From assembly GCF_030013595.1 (NCBI RefSeq), contig NZ_CP122768.1: DNA of 64,000 bases. The stretch is one strand, 5' to 3'. This stretch comes from Escherichia coli (GTDB taxonomy: Bacteria > Pseudomonadota > Gammaproteobacteria > Enterobacterales > Enterobacteriaceae). Positions 18,871 to 60,620 of the stretch are shown one piece after another. Position 1 is the stretch's first letter. Every line of letters starts with the position of its first letter. The notes under the pieces were generated by a model. It had not been told where the DNA came from. It saw only the letters and a list, made by a program, of their open reading frames with translations, and did not search any database. The translations under genes were made by a program, and so were the position numbers.

Positions 18871-19077
18871 TTTGCCGATAAAGGTTTGGTGGTCGCGCAA
18901 TATATTCGTAACCGTCGTCTCGATTTTTGTGCTGATGCGATTCGCCATGCCGCAGATGATGAAAAACTGGCAGGTATTGGCTTTCATTGGGGATTTTCCG
19001 ATCAGAGTCATTTTTCAACGGTATTTAAGCAACGCTTTGGGATGACGCCAGGCGAGTATCGACGTAAATTCCGCTAA
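18871..19077 (+). pseudogene. feaR: 3' remnant of feaR (AraC-family HTH, last ~68 codons)
   Basis: Plus frame FADKGLVVAQYIRNRRLDFCADAIRHAADDEKLAGIGFHWGFSDQSHFSTVFKQRFGMTPGEYRRKFR* is an AraC C-terminal HTH signature. It is convergent with ydbL as feaR is in K-12. An in-frame stop lies at 18841. Confidence 0.7.
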
Positions 19078-19248
19078 CTAATTCGCGTTGCATGTACAGC
19101 AACGCGAATTAGTTAAAACAGATATTTGACTATGCATTTTTCAGGGCGAAAGGCAATTTGACAGGAATTTTTGAATATTCACCTTGTTTCCGGAAAATAG
19201 AATAATCGCCTTCTCCTGTAGCGTTATCCCGATATTGCGGTTTTGCTA

Positions 19249-38585: not shown

Positions 38586-39149
38586 ATGACAACCCAACTG
38601 ATCCCCGTTTTCAACGGAACTATCTCAAACGAAACCATCCTTCTATGCAACGCTCGCGATCTGCATGCCTTTCTCGAAGTAGGTAAGCGCTTTGCCACTT
38701 GGATCACCGAGCGACTTAGCGAGTATGAATTCGTAGAAAATCAGGACTATGTGATTGCTTCCCAAATTCGGGAAGCAAAAGGCCGGGGAGGCCACAACCG
38801 CAAGGACTACCACCTCACCCTAGATACCGCCAAAGAGCTGGCAATGGTTGAGCGCAACGAAAAAGGCCGCCAGATCCGCCGATACTTCATCGAGTGCGAG
38901 AAGAAGCTGCGCGAAGATACCACCAGCACACAATCCCCTCTGAATGTTGACATCATCATGCGCGTCAGAAACGGCTCAGTTACCCACATTGAGCACCACA
39001 AATCAGGCTCAGTTATCACCACAGAATGGGCAATTCACTTACTACGCAAAAGTGGATGGATTGTCATGCCACGCGATGAACTTCTTAACACGCCACTGGC
39101 CCAACTGATGCCCGAAAGCTTGCCTCAAACCGGAACCTGCGTCCGGTAA
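38586..39149 (+). CDS. AntA/AntB-type phage antirepressor-like protein
   Basis: 187 aa. N-terminal AntA-type sequence ARDLHAFLEVGKRFATWITERLSEYEFVENQDY ... DYHLTLDTAKELAMVERNEKGRQIRRYFIECEKKL. Confidence 0.8.
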   Translation: MTTQLIPVFNGTISNETILLCNARDLHAFLEVGKRFATWITERLSEYEFVENQDYVIASQIREAKGRGGHNRKDYHLTLDTAKELAMVERNEKGRQIRRYFIECEKKLREDTTSTQSPLNVDIIMRVRNGSVTHIEHHKSGSVITTEWAIHLLRKSGWIVMPRDELLNTPLAQLMPESLPQTGTCVR

Positions 39150-39475: not shown

Positions 39476-39640
39476 TCAACCTTTCAAGTAAATTAGGGTA
39501 CCGGTAGCCAGAGCGGTACAAATGATCCACGCTACTGGAGTCAGAATATGCCGAATACCCTGACATACTGCGATTATTCTCGCAGCCTTATCAGCTCCTT
39601 GTGGGGTTGTCTCAGCCTTAAGAATCAGTTCGCTATCCAT
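39476..39640 (-). CDS. 54-aa membrane ORF (small ORF B)
   Basis: MDSELILKAETTPQGADKAARIIAVCQGIRHILTPVAWIICTALATGTLIYLKG. C-terminal TM. Its ATG overlaps the stop of ORF A, and its stop lies 3 nt before the next gene. Too short for the ORF track. Confidence 0.5.
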   Translation of the reverse strand: MDSELILKAETTPQGADKAARIIAVCQGIRHILTPVAWIICTALATGTLIYLKG

Positions 39641-39800
39641 TTAGAACCTTTATGATCTCTGCGATTCCCGGAAGCGATTTAGCAACTGCAAACCCTCCGA
39701 TAACTATAAGAACTGCATAAAACATTCTTCTCAGAACCGGACTTCTTTCGAGCAATTTTAGAGCTTCCACAATCCAGTCTCCTCCGCTAAAATTAATCAC
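39633..39800 (-). CDS. 55-aa membrane ORF (small ORF A)
   Basis: GTG start 6 nt after GGAGG. (M)INFSGGDWIVEALKLLERSPVLRRMFYAVLIVIGGFAVAKSLPGIAEIIKVLNG, one TM. Confidence 0.5.
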   Translation of the reverse strand: MINFSGGDWIVEALKLLERSPVLRRMFYAVLIVIGGFAVAKSLPGIAEIIKVLNG

Positions 39801-39855
39801 GGAAGACCTCCAAACATACGTAATTATCCCTTGCCTTATTCAAGGTCAGAAACAG

Positions 39856-39887
39856 AAAGCCCCGACTGTTTGCCCAGTCGGGGCTTT
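39856..39887 (-). terminator. intrinsic terminator inside the tail operon (after the spike gene)
   Basis: GCCCCGACTG-N6-CAGTCGGGGC, 10-bp stem flanked by AAA/TTT. The minus strand continues TTTCTGTTTCTG. Confidence 0.7.
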
Positions 39888-39925
39888 CGCTTTATGGATA
39901 GAATTTAAAGTGAAATGAACCGGTA

Positions 39926-40639
39926 TTAACCCGGATTTGGTTTCTTTGACGTGATCGTGCTGTTGCCGCTTTGAACCCCAGTCACATCGTGGCTGTGACC
40001 GCTGGCGCTGACACCTTTTATCATCGCGTCGTTTTGCACAGTAAGCGGGCCAATCAGCGAAGCGGTTGTATCCTTCATCTGGGCTTTGTCCTGGACGATC
40101 GGTCCGTTGAGGTGAATTTTCCCGTTCAGGAAAATATCTTCGGCCTCGAGGTAAACAGCTTTCGACTTTTGCCTGATTTCTTCCGGTGCCACCGTTACCG
40201 AGCTACTGCCGTCCTCTGTTTTGAGGATCGCGCCATCCGGACCGTACAAAACGATCTTTTGCGGATCTTCGTCGGACCAGTCCTTGTTTGCCAGTGGCAC
40301 GAAAAACAGTGGAGTGAGCGACATCGAGTAAGAGAGCGTCGCCATACCGGTTCCCAATCCGGACACACCGCGCAGGGATACATCAGCGGCAATTGTTACT
40401 CCTCGATCGCCCGGCTGTATCGGGTAACGAATATACGGGAATGTGGCGACAGGGATTGTTATCTGCGGAAAGTTGATCCCCTCCGGCAGCATATCAAACT
40501 GAACTGTCACTATCTGCCCGCTGACACCGACAACATGGCAGGGCAATTCACGACCTTTAAGCTCGGCTTGCTGGTTACCAGAACTGGTCATCATCTCCGA
40601 CAGCGTTCGGAGAAACGGTAATTTTTGAGCGTTTGACAT
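39926..40639 (-). CDS. baseplate central spike (gpV / Gp138-N-like)
   Basis: 237 aa. OB-fold-like N-terminal part and a C-terminal beta-helix/apex with an HSHD motif. Position after the hub. Confidence 0.65.
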   Translation of the reverse strand: MSNAQKLPFLRTLSEMMTSSGNQQAELKGRELPCHVVGVSGQIVTVQFDMLPEGINFPQITIPVATFPYIRYPIQPGDRGVTIAADVSLRGVSGLGTGMATLSYSMSLTPLFFVPLANKDWSDEDPQKIVLYGPDGAILKTEDGSSSVTVAPEEIRQKSKAVYLEAEDIFLNGKIHLNGPIVQDKAQMKDTTASLIGPLTVQNDAMIKGVSASGHSHDVTGVQSGNSTITSKKPNPG

Positions 40640-57364: not shown

Positions 57365-57468
57365 AACATATATTGTAATTCAGGCTCGGTTATTTCGAAT
57401 TGAATACTTGCATTAAAATCTGATAAAAAATTCGTCATAACAACAACATTCTCTTCTGCATGTGCCAT
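57361..57468 (-). CDS. 35-aa acidic ORF (uncertain)
   Basis: MAHAEENVVVMTNFLSDFNASIQFEITEPELQYML. Its start abuts a hairpin. Confidence 0.3.
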   Translation of the reverse strand: MAHAEENVVVMTNFLSDFNASIQFEITEPELQYML

Positions 57469-57471
57469 AAC

Positions 57472-57499
57472 CTGCCGTAACAACCCGGCAGTTTTTTTT
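57472..57499 (+). terminator. plus-strand intrinsic terminator with no plus-strand gene upstream
   Basis: CTGCCG-taacaacc-CGGCAG followed by T8 on the plus strand. On the minus strand the hairpin is followed by GTTATGG (no U-tract). Confidence 0.55.
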
Positions 57500-57699
57500 A
57501 TTGAATAAATTTCCGGTTTCTTCCACCATCGCACCGGCCAGGCGACTATGAGGGGACAACGCCGCGCTCCGTTAACGCAGTAAACCCCGGTGTGTATCGT
57601 TTTTGATTATTCCCGCACACTCGCGCAGAGGAGTCTCCCCGTAGGGCTGCGGTCTCTGTTAATGCGGAAATACGGCGACGATACAACGCATTGAAAAAA

Positions 57700-58158
57700 C
57701 TATTTCAGGCACTGAGTACGGATATATTCCTGAAGCGTTCTCAATGCTGCCTGGTCGCTGATGATTCCGTCTCTGATACCGAGAACGTTTCGTCCAGCAA
57801 CTGGAGAGAGTTCGACGCTGGCATCATTGCCCACGCGGGCGGTGGCGGTGGCTTCACGCACGGAGCCTGGACAGGTGGCGTTGATCCGCAGGCGCTTACG
57901 ACCAGCGGTAACATCAGCACGCAGAGTTTCATTTTCAGCTCTCGCATCGGCTAATTCCCTCGAGTATTTTGCATCGAGCGCAGCAACATCGTGCTGGCGC
58001 TGCTGCATATCAGTAATGGTGGCGTTCGCCAGCTTCAGCTCACTGACTTTTTTATCGCGCTGCGCTTTGTAAGTGATGGCGTTATCGCGGTAATGATTCA
58101 GCCCCAGACTAAGCACACCACAGACCACCAGCAGAATAACGGTAAACGCGGAAAGCAT
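57700..58158 (-). CDS. rz: i-spanin Rz
   Basis: 152 aa from [20 protein letters not shown] (N-terminal TM), then a coiled coil resembling lambda Rz. The longer 223-aa reading is rejected. Confidence 0.85.
57741..57932 (-). CDS. rz1: o-spanin Rz1 (embedded in rz, +1 frame)
   Basis: 63 aa, [15 protein letters not shown] lipobox, Pro-rich mature part ([16 protein letters not shown]). Confidence 0.85.
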
Positions 58159-58169
58159 TCGGTTTATGC

Positions 58170-58304
58170 TCACCCCAGCATCCCCGACGAAGACAACATC
58201 ATCCAGCCCAGGGAAAGAAAAAGAGCAACCAGCATTAGTGAAAATGAAATGCCGACAATTACACAGAGGATCTTCGCCAGAGTTATGAGTTTGTCTGATA
58301 TCAT
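58170..58304 (-). CDS. 44-aa hydrophobic ORF between the Ant-like gene and rz
   Basis: [48 protein letters not shown] about 11 nt upstream. Too short for the ORF track. Confidence 0.45.
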
Positions 58305-58318
58305 TGGTCACCACTCCA

Positions 58319-58888
58319 TCAATCCGTCTTTGTGATTTTTCCTTTGCCTGTATCAGCCAGGACAAAATCAATCAGCAGATTCGCTTCATTTATCAACGTG
58401 CGAATTTTTGATACATGTGCAGCTTTAACCGACTTCCACTCACTCAGCCCGGTACCAAACAAACTGGCGATGTTTTTATCCCGTTTCATGTCAGCGCATA
58501 CCTGATTGAGTTCTTCCATCACGCTCATTCGACGGGGATTAACGACAAAACCCTTCGTCCAGTATTCATAGAGAACATCGTCGCACTCTTCCTGATACTG
58601 AATGACCCTGTCGCGGATTTCAGGTTTAACTTTGTTGGGATTGATGGTTTGTAACCAGCCCGCAAGTTTTCGAAGTGGCAGGGATACCATATTGCGTCGT
58701 TTCCCATCCTCAGCAACCATAACGATTTCCGTTATAGTTGACGCAAAACGCTGTCTTAACTTAGCCAACTGTGATTGCCAGGCTAGCCCCATCCCCGCAA
58801 CAACAGGCTTCATGTGAACGTATGGCTCGCCATTATGGTTAACCACATAAAGAGAGTTGCCGTGAAACGGCACGGTCATCATATTCAT
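58319..58888 (-). CDS. P22 Ant N-terminal-domain (P22_AR_N) antirepressor-like protein
   Basis: 189 aa. [34 protein letters not shown]...[37 protein letters not shown] resembles the P22 Ant N-terminal domain. SD AAGGA. Confidence 0.8.
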
Positions 58889-58997
58889 CGGTTATTTCCT
58901 TTTAGTGATGAACCTTGTCTCACAGGAATCCGGCCCACAGAAAAGCACCGATAGCCAAACCGGTATCCTCAAGGGTCATCCTGAAAGGTTCTGTGTT

Positions 58998-59019
58998 GTG
59001 AGATGCGCGTGAGATGCGC
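58998..59019. repeat. perfect tandem 11-mer (GTGAGATGCGC x2)
   Basis: Direct duplication between the endolysin terminator and the Ant-like gene. Confidence 0.9.
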
Positions 59020-59035
59020 AGAAATATTCAGATAT

Positions 59036-59061
59036 GAAAAAGCCCACGCCTTTACGTGGGC
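59036..59061 (-). terminator. intrinsic terminator after the endolysin gene, inside the lysis cassette
   Basis: Minus strand: GCCCACG-taaagg-CGTGGGC followed by TTTTTC. Confidence 0.75.
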
Positions 59062-59099
59062 CAGAAGGCCACTCGTTGCAGCCTTGTGTTTTGTTTTTT

Positions 59100-59477
59100 T
59101 TATCGTTTCAACTGAAAGTGAGGCCCGTCCTTCAACGTTTTCCAGTCCCCGCCCCATTCGATGGCGATTCCCAGCTCTGTGGCGGCCTGCTTAAATGCCT
59201 GCGCGATTTTCTCGTACAGAGGCCAGTTCCATGACACCTGGCTGCCAATGTAAGCAACAACATCCACCGCATCACCTGTCAGGTGGCGGCTGTTCATGGT
59301 CTGGCTCTTGCCTTCTGCAACCAGTTGTTTCTGGCGCTCTTTCGTGCGCAGACCTTCCGTAATACCGAAATCAACCTCCGTCAGCTCCAGCGCACGGCGA
59401 ACGACAGCAACCAGCTGTGGTTTTACGCCCTCCAGATTTTTCTCGCTCCGACGGCTGAATCTGAATTTACCCGACAT
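59100..59477 (-). CDS. endolysin, peptidase M15 (L-alanyl-D-glutamate / VanY-like) family
   Basis: 125 aa from the ATG at 59477 (SD GGAGGTG). Zn-ligand pattern SRHLTGDAVDV ... DGPHFQL. Confidence 0.8.
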   Translation of the reverse strand: MSGKFRFSRRSEKNLEGVKPQLVAVVRRALELTEVDFGITEGLRTKERQKQLVAEGKSQTMNSRHLTGDAVDVVAYIGSQVSWNWPLYEKIAQAFKQAATELGIAIEWGGDWKTLKDGPHFQLKR

Positions 59478-59479
59478 AC

Positions 59480-59755
59480 TCACCTCCGTAATGAAAGGAT
59501 TTTTGAAACGTTCCCACGAGCACGAATCACCAGCACGCAGAACAGCAGATTAAGCCCCACCGCCAGCCAGTTCGCCGCTAACGGACGACCACACAGATAG
59601 CTGAGTGGCGCAAAGGCATAAAGCAGCATCAGCAGCCAGGCCAGCCATGACATCAGCGGTTTATGTCTGGAATCACAGCGACGATAAAAAAAGAGCGTCA
59701 GCACGATAACCGTGCATAACGCCACATTCAGCAATCCGGGAAGGTTACTTAACAT
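59480..59755 (-). CDS. holin/antiholin-like membrane protein
   Basis: 91 aa from MLSNLPGLLNV, 3 TM. Its stop overlaps the endolysin SD. Confidence 0.65.
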   Translation of the reverse strand: MLSNLPGLLNVALCTVIVLTLFFYRRCDSRHKPLMSWLAWLLMLLYAFAPLSYLCGRPLAANWLAVGLNLLFCVLVIRARGNVSKILSLRR

Positions 59756-60137
59756 TGCCGCCTCCTCCACCCCGCAGGCGGGAGAACAAGCCGGACACCA
59801 GTGATGCGATATCCTGCTGGTGGATGAACGACAGAATCTTCACCGACACCACGGATACCAGCACCGCACACAGCGCATCTGCCGATGTGCCGTCATAACC
59901 TGTTTTTGCCGCTATCCAGGCAGACAGCACACGCGCTCCCAGCACGCCGACAATGAACGACACCAGAAAATGCGCCGCCACCCGCCAGGCTGAAAGCGCC
60001 TGCGGCATCGTTGCCACAAATAACGCCCCGGCGAACGCACCAAACACAATCCCGAAATCCGTTCCGGTAAACAGCCCGAATACCGTCGCCCCGCCGAGCG
60101 CCGCTGCCGTACCGGAACCGGATAAGGGTTCAGACAT
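59745..60137 (-). CDS. holin-like membrane protein
   Basis: 130 aa, Gly/Ala-rich TMs, charged C-terminus (RLRGGGGGNVK). First gene of the lysis cassette. Confidence 0.65.
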   Translation of the reverse strand: MSEPLSGSGTAAALGGATVFGLFTGTDFGIVFGAFAGALFVATMPQALSAWRVAAHFLVSFIVGVLGARVLSAWIAAKTGYDGTSADALCAVLVSVVSVKILSFIHQQDIASLVSGLFSRLRGGGGGNVK

Positions 60138-60194
60138 AAATACCTCTCAAAATCAGCGTGATGGGAGTTTATACCAAGTTATAAAATTATGTGA

Positions 60195-60620
60195 TTAAGT
60201 ATCTTTTTGTGGTCCCATACAATAATCAGATGAACTACATGTGCTTAAAGAAATTAGTTCGTTAGTAGAGAAGGCCTTTTTAAACTCGGAATCACTCCAC
60301 ACATTCTCCTTATAATAGACCCTTATACTTTCACCAGTAGCATAATAATACTTAGCCATTTCCATCATGGCATCGAAACCTTGTTTATGAGATCCAAAGA
60401 CATCCACCTTACACATATTGTGAATGGGAAGAGTCACATTATCACGCTTTATACCAATACAAAAAAACTGACTTTCCTTACCCCCGGATGTGTAAACTCC
60501 ATATGATAAATTATTTATCTGAACATTACTAAAGTACTTATCATAATCACTCATCACTGCATGACTTGTACCAGATAACAATGAAAGAGCAATTAAGGAA
60601 TATTTTATTTTCCGTTTCAT
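60195..60620 (-). CDS. pltB: AB5 toxin binding (B) subunit, PltB/ArtB/SubB-like
   Basis: 141 aa from [21 protein letters not shown] (signal peptide; SD AAGAGG). ..FFCIGIK...[17 protein letters not shown]...[21 protein letters not shown] parallels PltB/SubB (YFYSTGQSVRIHV..NIW...LSSCS..C.GP) from memory. Confidence 0.8.

Follow-up and report, generated by a model that had tools for sequence, protein, structure and literature searches.

A conserved pseudoknotted leader RNA with an upstream terminator and hairpin precedes an Ant-like gene in the late operon of an Escherichia coli prophage

The stretch of DNA analyzed here, 64,000 nt of Escherichia coli contig NZ_CP122768.1 (assembly GCF_030013595.1) and called the window throughout, contains the lysis region of a lambdoid prophage, whose features lie on the minus strand (Table 1). 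Two holin-type genes and an M15 family endolysin gene are followed by an intrinsic terminator, a small hairpin (P0), a structured leader RNA, a gene for a 189-aa Ant-like protein (ant) and a 44-aa membrane open reading frame (ORF), and only after these do the spanin genes Rz and Rz1 appear, which confirms the description of an interrupted lysis cassette given in an earlier note made from the sequence alone. What appears to be new is that ant, the rha gene of phage P22 and more than 100 other prophage genes share one covarying pseudoknotted leader with a preceding hairpin and terminator, and that this leader is found in some of the most studied phages. Our best overall explanation, to which we give a probability of about 0.6, is that the interval is an accessory cassette of the late operon in which the terminator, P0 and the leader control the Ant-like gene.

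Table 1. Features of the prophage lysis region in the window (coordinates are those of the 64,000-nt stretch)
Feature	Position	Strand	Evidence or remark
Holin (Phage_holin_8)	59745..60137	-	Pfam 4e-23; phrog_198
Second holin or antiholin (Phage_holin_3_7)	59480..59770	-	Pfam 5.5e-21; phrog_217
M15 family endolysin	59100..59483	-	Peptidase_M15_4 (PF13539) 9e-13; phrog_465 endolysin 5e-76
Intrinsic terminator including T-rich tail	59031..59062	-	Stem-loop 59062-59041; first element of the cassette 5' module
Hairpin P0, UGCGC-AUCUCAC-GCGCA	59004..59020	-	Arms lie within the tandem 11-mer 58998-59019
Structured leader RNA, long hairpin P1-P3 and apical P4	58886..59005	-	Covariance model R1, 83 bits, E 3e-19
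Pseudoknot 5' strand ACAGAA	58989..58994	-	Partner UUCUGU at 58942-58937
Pseudoknot 3' strand UUCUGU, in apical loop	58937..58942	-	Alignment columns 97.3% paired
Anti-Shine-Dalgarno CCUUU, 5' base of P1	58984..58988	-	Partner AAAGG 58902-58898; minimum-free-energy fold and model alignment
Shine-Dalgarno region AAAGG of the Ant-like gene, predicted to be sequestered in P1	58898..58902	-	Minimum-free-energy fold and model alignment
189-aa Ant-like protein (P22_AR_N + ORF11CD3), ant/d_ant of Shiga toxin phages	58319..58888	-	
44-aa single-pass membrane ORF	58170..58304	-	phrog_4906, 3.7e-23
Rz i-spanin	57700..58158	-	Phage_lysis 1e-38
Rz1 o-spanin embedded in Rz	57741..57947	-	Rz1 3e-21

Over the 117 nt that precede the ant ATG, the window is 97.4% identical to the Shiga toxin (Stx) phage VT2-Sakai, and the synonymous divergence of the adjacent ant gene is 0.23. 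This leader is a long interrupted hairpin with a conserved asymmetric bulge of 6–7 nt, whose basal helix pairs the Shine-Dalgarno sequence with an upstream CCUUU and in which a pseudoknot of 6–7 bp joins the 5' flank to the apical loop. Folded one by one, all 14 variants form this hairpin, with energies of -38 to -56 kcal/mol. The window holds a single copy (59005-58886, model R1), and its opposite strand scores only 11.9 bits. An 18-bit match at 19053-19134 of the window was rejected as a second copy, being a plain perfect long hairpin at chance level that has none of the inner elements, and a 19-codon mini-ORF in the leader (ATG at 58979) was set aside as well, as it stops after 5 codons in the second sequence variant and other variants lack that ATG.

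Covariation was examined in a MAFFT alignment of 33 representatives and in a model-based alignment of 112 hits, 74 of them distinct. Across the two alignments the proposed structure is 89–93% paired, compared with 82–85% in shuffles, none of which reach it (0 of 500), and 18–24 pairs have changes on both sides. For the 74 distinct sequences, 92.8% of the cells are paired versus 85.4% after shuffling, with 24 pairs changed on both sides, and when the partners are slid by one to three columns pairing is at most 51%. Compensatory changes are present in four helices and in the pseudoknot. In the case of the pseudoknot, which was left out of the covariance model so that its columns are not fitted to the model, 97.3% of the cells are paired and compensatory types occur at 4 of the 6 pairs (AU40/GC27, UA42/CG26, CG60/AU10), with the window strands ACAGAA/UUCUGU taking the forms CAAAGA/UCUUUG, CAGAGA/UCUCUG, CCCCGAG/CUCGGGG, CAUCGAA/UUCGAUG, CGUCGA/UCGACG and CACCGA/UCGGUG in other variants. 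The structure is also strand-specific, with pairing of 92.8% on the sense strand versus 86.1% on the antisense strand, where the 188 G-U cells become mismatches.

The position of the leader relative to the gene behind it is equally regular. In a pattern scan of IMG/VR, which yielded at least 120 contigs, an ATG lies 17–24 nt (mostly 19–22) after a conserved GGUUCAU in 80 of 83 distinct leaders and opens an ORF of at least 30 aa, and most of the complete ORFs behind leaders are 160–210 aa long. The Shine-Dalgarno sequence is situated within or beside the basal helix, and in the main class its GG pairs with a CC next to the pseudoknot strand.

Upstream of the leader there are two further elements. 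The intrinsic terminator that the earlier note had placed after the endolysin, at 59036-59061, is present as a stem-loop at 59062-59041 with 9 pairs, 6 of them GC, followed by TTTTTCATATC with the T tract TTTTT; it thus has both the GC-rich hairpin and the U tract of intrinsic (Rho-independent) terminators, and among the 9 terminator-like sites in 57400-60400, where 2.4 are expected, it ranks first. A terminator-like hairpin with a T tail lies no more than 110 nt upstream in 79 of 86 distinct leader copies, at a median of 33 nt, compared with 68 of 600 random segments (11%), and the hairpin sequence of the window itself recurs before the leader copies of loci L133, L156 and L080. Since a degenerate remnant of the terminator of a comparator prophage stands between the M15 stop codon and this hairpin, the 59062-59041 terminator seems to have arrived with the cassette. 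Between terminator and leader, P0 is found in 98.6% of 70 distinct upstream segments versus 37% of shuffles, and its stems are compensated (GCGC/GCGC, GUGCA/UGCAC, GCGU/ACGC, GCAC/GUGC, GCGCC/GGCGC and others). Terminator, P0 and the leader of about 120 nt form one conserved 5' control module.

P0 also accounts for the place of the perfect tandem 11-mer GTGAGATGCGC that the earlier note had seen twice over at 58998-59019 (minus strand; Tandem Repeats Finder score 44, 100% match; about 0.02 expected by chance in 64 kb by our estimate), in that the two GCGC arms of the window hairpin fall one in each repeat unit. Genes 94–95% identical to ant have a leader variant (GCGCTTCGCACAAGCG...) that keeps the P0 hairpin without the repeat, and the repeat as such is therefore incidental. 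We rejected it as a conserved repeat or operator, as it is missing from the variant-2, Salmonella and distant leaders, in which only the hairpin is kept; the note had itself named absence from close relatives as an observation that would tell against a regulatory repeat, and absence is what the comparison revealed. Its broader proposal, that the cargo is regulated separately from lysis, stands insofar as the terminator belongs to the control of the cargo, but a repeat acting as operator and a promoter of the cargo's own are unsupported, and the control element is the RNA leader. A simple promoter scan found no sigma-70-like promoter on the minus strand near 58890-59100, and the weak A/T-rich boxes resembling -10 elements that can be seen by eye upstream of ant are not consistent; no LexA box was found near or upstream of ant. 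An integration host factor (IHF) site between the terminator and P0 was rejected too, since in a crude test the best matches to WATCARNNNNTTR were no better than those in shuffles.

Nearly all copies have a single-stranded, C/A-rich linker between P0 and the pseudoknot. In the window (58991-59003, minus strand) its sequence is CUCACAACACAG, with the motif CACAACA, which Tree et al. 2014 (PMC4104026) quote as the GcvB R1 target consensus, and on the strength of this motif a link to Hfq and GcvB through the leader is possible.

The leader extends well beyond the Stx phages. Searches of the fetched loci with nhmmer recovered a second variant of the sequence ahead of other ant genes in Stx phages, one Salmonella copy, second leader copies downstream of Rz that precede Rha-type genes, and diverged copies in Symbiopectobacterium, Providencia and Serratia symbiotica. 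Among 5,426 complete E. coli genomes, 879 carry the leader, with up to 10 copies per genome. Every full-length Ant homologue in E. coli, Salmonella, Providencia, Symbiopectobacterium and S. symbiotica is preceded by it; relatives that share no more than the P22_AR_N domain with the Ant-like protein are without it, and there is no copy at P22 ant. The other ORFs behind leaders encode, according to Pfam, KilA-N with ORF11CD3, Phage_pRha with ORF11CD3, KilA-N, KilA-N with P63C, Bro-N, or HNH_3 with or without AP2. The cassettes are located between endolysin and Rz in the window, in the Stx phages and in L087, L197, L154 and L085, and after Rz/Rz1 in P22, L086 (two in tandem), L089, L119 and many IMG/VR contigs. 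Tandem cassettes also occur in L007/L014. In L004 a diverged copy (252-367, 55 bits) precedes a TerB-family gene directly after the late-region tRNA genes of a lambdoid prophage, and the module is therefore restricted neither to the lysis region nor to DNA-binding proteins. In P22 (L239, BK000583.1) the element at 39520-39646 scores 116 bits and precedes rha, and the start of the annotated rha coding sequence (39575-40180) falls inside its apical loop. By the geometry of the element the ATG would be the one at 39644, which is in frame with the annotated start, lies 23 codons further downstream and has a Shine-Dalgarno sequence before it, so that P22 Rha is probably a protein of 178 aa and not the annotated 201 aa.

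The combination of this pseudoknotted leader with a terminator and P0 appears to be undescribed. Rfam 15 gave no match at E ≤ 1 over 6 kb, only chance-level matches (E 0.87–5.8) over 271 nt at a threshold of E ≤ 10, and no match on six other leader-bearing loci, and RefSeq has no RNA feature at any of the 2,971 places where the leader occurs in complete E. coli genomes. A full-text literature search for the conserved sequence strings of the leader found none, and a search on Rha, KilA and RNA motifs returned nothing relevant. The anti-sRNAs of enterohemorrhagic E. coli lie downstream of stx (Tree et al. 2014, PMC4104026), and not at the leader.

The protein encoded behind the leader matches P22_AR_N (PF10547, 9e-45), as the earlier note had recognized, together with ORF11CD3 (5e-07) and phrog_524, "anti-repressor Ant" (1.7e-108), and more than 250 phage records match it at 92–95% amino acid identity over 189 aa. 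Its location between the endolysin gene R and Rz, which the note had described as recurring in Stx-type phages, is indeed an already known arrangement, as VT2-Sakai, BP-4795, phi24B, Stx2 converting phage I, O104:H4 P13374 and others carry such a gene there, annotated as ant or d_ant in Stx phage records. Relatives of the family combining P22_AR_N with ORF11CD3 (about 187–190 aa) number 2,310 at E ≤ 1e-5 and are spread over Enterobacterales, insect symbionts included, and ant is under purifying selection, with a ratio of nonsynonymous to synonymous polymorphism (pN/pS) of 0.11–0.16. In tblastn the match to P22 ant has 48% identity over residues 1-126 and ends at 126. An AlphaFold model has a mean pLDDT of 70, rising to 80–90 in the N-terminal domain, and structural comparison of this domain gave values of 8.0 with Dachshund, 7.2 with DdrC, 7.0 with Ski DHD and 5.7 with Mbp1 APSES, so that as modeled it resembles DNA-binding folds of the winged-helix/APSES type. 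A sequence search of the PDB found no relative and Foldseek against the PDB found nothing significant, and the PADLOC defence-system models gave no match for Ant, the 44-aa ORF or P22 Rha.

Taking the model together with the domain content, we think it probable that the Ant-like protein is a small protein with a DNA-binding fold, belonging to the Rha/KilA-N modular class. Judged by its sequence relatives, the "Ant" label fits the N-terminal domain only, while the ORF11CD3 C-terminal half, the leader and the locus resemble those of P22 Rha; the label is over-read in the earlier note, and antirepressor activity is unsupported. In phi24B the gene is called d_ant and was hypothesized to encode an antirepressor (CI antagonist) and to be a possible target of the small RNA 24B_1 (PMC4426718), which agrees with the note's remark that no function is established for Ant-like genes in this place; later work pointed to sdhB as the 24B_1 target instead (PMC10732415), and the ant gene knocked out by Fogg et al. 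is a different one, located in the early region before qut (PMC3064807). The second antirepressor-like gene that the note had pointed to at 38586 is real, but it belongs to another family: it is a 187-aa protein (38586-39149, plus strand) with an AntA/AntB domain (PF08346, 8e-27), unrelated to the P22_AR_N protein and without a leader copy. In E. coli GB089 (L004, 3637-4207) ant is frameshifted behind a leader 100% identical to that of the window, and in three porcine strains (H61-H63; ETEC6333/6334 and P15-25) the match to the window ends inside ant near 58781-58784, so that ant is dispensable in at least some lysogens.

From this anatomy and these associations we infer translational repression and late-only expression of ant. 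The terminator would stop any polymerase that is not Q-modified, and because the gene lies in the late operon with no detectable promoter of its own and no LexA box, its transcription would most likely come from Q-modified polymerase reading through the terminator. On read-through transcripts, the leader would block the access of ribosomes, since the base of the hairpin is predicted to pair the Shine-Dalgarno AAAGG (58902-58898) with the anti-Shine-Dalgarno CCUUU (58988-58984). Synthesis of the Ant-like protein would then be confined to the late phase and to times at which the fold is opened or has not yet formed, with co-transcriptional kinetics, cleavage by RNase III, Hfq with a small RNA, or a further ligand or protein as candidate openers. 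The pseudoknot may lock a compact closed fold, which would need a sharp bend at the conserved 6–7-nt bulge, or it may be part of an early or alternative fold in which the Shine-Dalgarno is temporarily exposed. Such a double lock resembles the control of IS200 and of homing-endonuclease genes, which would fit a product that is harmful if mis-expressed, and the most likely role of the module would be to keep a DNA-binding, possibly harmful accessory protein of the late operon off unless conditions allow.

Several considerations weigh against this interpretation. The window sequence alone folds only modestly better than shuffles (z = -1.6), and the helix that holds the Shine-Dalgarno (helix 2) is invariant or weak, as a constrained Shine-Dalgarno cannot covary. 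Apart from the pseudoknot columns, the alignment behind most of the counts was fitted to the model, and the sampling of sequences was seeded by pattern and homology and is biased toward Enterobacterales. The stems are unusually conserved, with P2 nearly invariant, which hints at recognition of a specific sequence. Translational repression is deduced from the base pairing, and the pseudoknot may either stabilize the closed state or compete with it. A transcription start inside the leader, as in the T4 homing-endonuclease genes, would free the Shine-Dalgarno, and the simple promoter scan may be compatible with such a start.

The family name of the protein invites the reading that it is a true antirepressor, comparable with P22 Ant or the LexA-controlled antirepressors of Gifsy phages, which would inactivate the repressor of the resident or a co-resident prophage and promote induction or cross-induction, with the upstream elements timing its release. 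The strong P22_AR_N match, the 48% identity to P22 Ant, the annotation as Ant in many records and the hypothesis of a CI antagonist put forward for phi24B d_ant (PMC4426718) are all in its favor, but it is quite unlikely when the rest of the gene and its surroundings are considered. The C-terminal half of P22 Ant is replaced by ORF11CD3, and the position in a Q-dependent late operon between endolysin and Rz implies a product that comes after the lysis decision. No promoter, LexA box or control of the Arc/Mnt/sar type was found upstream, while N-termini of the Rha and KilA-N types are found with this leader and C-terminal domain, HNH nuclease genes follow the same leader as well, and the modeled N-terminal domain has a fold of the DNA-binding type; the role of d_ant has stayed at the level of hypothesis (PMC4426718), and later work on 24B_1 moved to sdhB (PMC10732415). 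Position could also be taken to mean that the Ant-like protein, the 44-aa ORF or both are lysis accessories that tune the function or timing of holin, endolysin or spanin. Even Ant homologues of only 58–60% identity are encoded immediately between an endolysin gene and Rz/Rz1 in Providencia-type and other phages, beside M15, GH108 and other endolysins, the 44-aa ORF abuts Rz and holds its ribosome-binding site, and in the comparator prophage the ORF adjoining Rz is an unrelated one for a membrane protein of 45 aa (phrog_6632). Other phages are known to have small membrane proteins that act in lysis, for example the releasin of Mu. A lysis role is nevertheless unlikely, given that cassettes with the same leader also follow Rz/Rz1 (P22 rha, L086, L089, L119 and others) or late-region tRNA genes (L004), that the Ant-like protein, with a DNA-binding fold in its N-terminal domain, contains neither a membrane domain nor one related to peptidoglycan, and that distant ant loci lack the 44-aa ORF, whose pN/pS of 0.5–1.3 indicates little constraint on residue identity.

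An alternative that is doubtful overall, and which is compatible with our explanation and not exclusive of it, is that the unit is a selfish, horizontally shuffled cassette like the free-standing homing-endonuclease genes, in which the leader would damp expression to limit harm to the phage and the DNA-binding protein would serve the spread or retention of the cassette. The presence of the same leader on HNH_3/AP2 endonuclease-type genes, the sharp mosaic junctions at the edges, the tandem cassettes (L086, L007/L014) and the multiplicity of up to 10 copies per E. coli genome speak for it, and a terminator combined with a hairpin that sequesters the ribosome-binding site is the control logic of the IS200 transposase and of the T4 and Aeh1 endonuclease genes. 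However, most of the associated proteins (Ant, Rha, KilA-N, Bro-N) have no recognizable nuclease domain, and the purifying selection on ant and its conserved position across genera fit a benefit to the phage. Finally, the inverted repeats might be conserved as DNA, as recombination linkers or as a palindromic protein site such as one for IHF, and not as RNA structure, a view consistent with the strong conservation of the stems, the mosaic junction at the edge of the element and the IHF-dependent phenotypes of Rha, as cited in PMC4936722. This is very improbable in light of the compensatory changes in four helices and the pseudoknot, the G-U cells, which are C-A mismatches on the other strand, the asymmetry of the model score (83 versus 11.9 bits), the fixed spacing to the Shine-Dalgarno and ATG, and the lack of enrichment of the IHF consensus over shuffles.

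Comparison with known systems places the cassette closest to the ant/d_ant blocks of Stx phages (VT2-Sakai, phi24B, BP-4795 and others), with which it shares the order endolysin, hairpin, leader, ant, 44-aa ORF and Rz/Rz1, the amino acid identity given above, and the same leader, 97% identical in one variant. The window differs from these phages in that two other holins and an M15 peptidase take the place of S and the R lysozyme, in carrying a pertussis-like AB5 toxin and not Stx, and in the sequence of its terminator hairpin. P22 Ant, the immI antirepressor, has the N-terminal P22_AR_N domain in common with the window protein, but according to its annotation it is a 300-aa protein with a different C-terminal half that is encoded in immI under Arc, Mnt and the sar antisense RNA, whereas the window protein has 189 aa, an ORF11CD3 C terminus, a late-operon location, a pseudoknotted leader and an endolysin gene upstream. 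The Rha protein of P22 and phi80, a late-operon protein that blocks phage growth in IHF-deficient hosts, is similar in its leader RNA (116 bits in P22), its ORF11CD3 C-terminal domain, the Rz/Rz1 neighborhood and its size, although pairwise BLASTP with the window protein is weak (E 0.002), its N terminus is Phage_pRha where that of the window protein is P22_AR_N, and rha follows Rz1 while the window gene precedes Rz.

Leaders that sequester the ribosome-binding site are known from selfish or toxic genes, among them IS200 tnpA (with a terminator and a hairpin over the ribosome-binding site), T4 I-TevI, Aeh1 mobE and the MS2 maturation-gene leader. As in these, the window module begins with a terminator, behind which comes a stable structure pairing with the Shine-Dalgarno, and it is associated with endonuclease-type HNH genes; it is unlike them in that the leader is much larger (about 120 nt), contains a covarying pseudoknot and a conserved asymmetric bulge, and is common to unrelated gene families across genera, with no internal late promoter detected. 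Riboswitch-type leaders, such as the preQ1 classes, also consist of a conserved RNA with tertiary structure directly 5' of the start codon and a Shine-Dalgarno in the closing helix, and the leader described here has a structure supported by covariation together with an expression platform at a fixed distance from the Shine-Dalgarno and start codon. It differs in having no Rfam 15 match, and its association with genes for phage DNA-binding and HNH proteins does not point to any metabolite. In the sense of Juhala et al. 2000, the cassette is like a moron in being an extra gene with variable cargo that is not needed for core function and lies between essential late genes, but it has no detected promoter of its own, its terminator is upstream and not downstream, and expression from the late transcript is expected.

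If the leader controls translation, it would mark out mobile DNA-binding and HNH genes of prophages in E. coli, Salmonella and related bacteria, Stx phages among them, as a regulon-like set, it would offer a concrete and mutable handle on the role of "antirepressor-like" late genes, and it would provide a candidate reason why Rha-type proteins turn harmful under some host conditions. We also raise, tentatively, the possibility that leader, terminator and P0 constitute a new class of sensing riboregulator, responding to a ligand, a protein or a cue from folding kinetics and gating prophage genes throughout Enterobacterales (Ant-like, Rha, KilA-N, Bro-N and HNH) to a specific cellular or infection state, which if true would explain the IHF-dependent phenotype of Rha and the purpose of antirepressor-like genes in the late operons of Stx phages. 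Two corrections of annotation are indicated in addition, namely that the start annotated for P22 rha is probably a position within the leader and that the tandem repeat is a hairpin and not an operator.

The hydrophobic 44-aa ORF that follows ant does exist as the earlier note described it, though its absence from the list of ORFs available to that note does not extend to the public annotation, where RefSeq includes it (WP_000622439.1, hypothetical protein). Its length is 44 aa in every case, with 10 protein variants across 81 loci, and it is always situated between an ant of the E. coli type and Rz; all 81 loci have ant, 79 also have an Rz homologue, and the other 2, which are short or incomplete loci, have no Rz match. 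More distant ant loci do not have it. A GGAG lies 9 nt upstream of the ORF, its 3' end carries the ribosome-binding site of Rz, and no terminator-like site was reported between its stop codon and the Rz start. The pN/pS of 0.5–1.3 is no proof that the ORF is coding, as there are too few sites and the region is mosaic. These features of the sequence point to a co-travelling small membrane protein that is translationally linked to Rz, which we regard as likely. In the Salmonella-type loci L080 (3564-3746) and L085 (3558-3740), ant is followed by a predicted lipoprotein of 60 aa (lipobox LLAGC or LLVGC; phrog_7528), and the 44-aa ORF and a recognizable Rz are missing.

With respect to the origin of the locus, a 2.6-kb region is 100% identical to prophages of the porcine E. 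coli cq9, UMNF18 and O139:H1, and from 59025 to 57600 the window has about 86% nucleotide identity to Stx-converting phages, in which S and the R lysozyme are followed by the same leader, ant, the 44-aa ORF and Rz. The interval 59062-58170 is thus best viewed as an accessory-gene cassette of a lambdoid late operon, namely the Stx-phage ant/d_ant block, which appears to have recombined behind a different set of holin and M15 endolysin genes with a junction near 59025. A near-identical prophage, found in E. coli 06-00048, shares its toxin, holins, M15 endolysin and Rz with the window, and its slot between R and Rz holds a different, 93-aa gene (phrog_33497) and a small membrane ORF (phrog_6632) that abuts Rz; because different genes occupy the slot there, the R-Rz interval is a variable cargo site.

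Immediately before the holin gene, where Stx phages have Stx, the window prophage also encodes an AB5 toxin pair of pertussis/ArtAB-like type (61413-60688 and 60677-60195, minus strand). For the A subunit the matches are Pertussis_S1 (4e-15) and Scabin-like, and the B subunit has a weak match to Pertussis_S2S3; the RefSeq names are scabin-related ADP-ribosyltransferase and subtilase-family AB5 binding subunit. The AB5-toxin prophage comes from porcine enterotoxigenic and edema disease E. coli strains (ETEC/EDEC). In L002 (11640-13076), the counterpart of the morphogenesis region of the window downstream of terminase, a 478-aa protein next to the large terminase subunit is labeled "anti-CBASS protein Acb1 family" in RefSeq, and as it occupies the usual position of the portal protein, this label may deserve a check.

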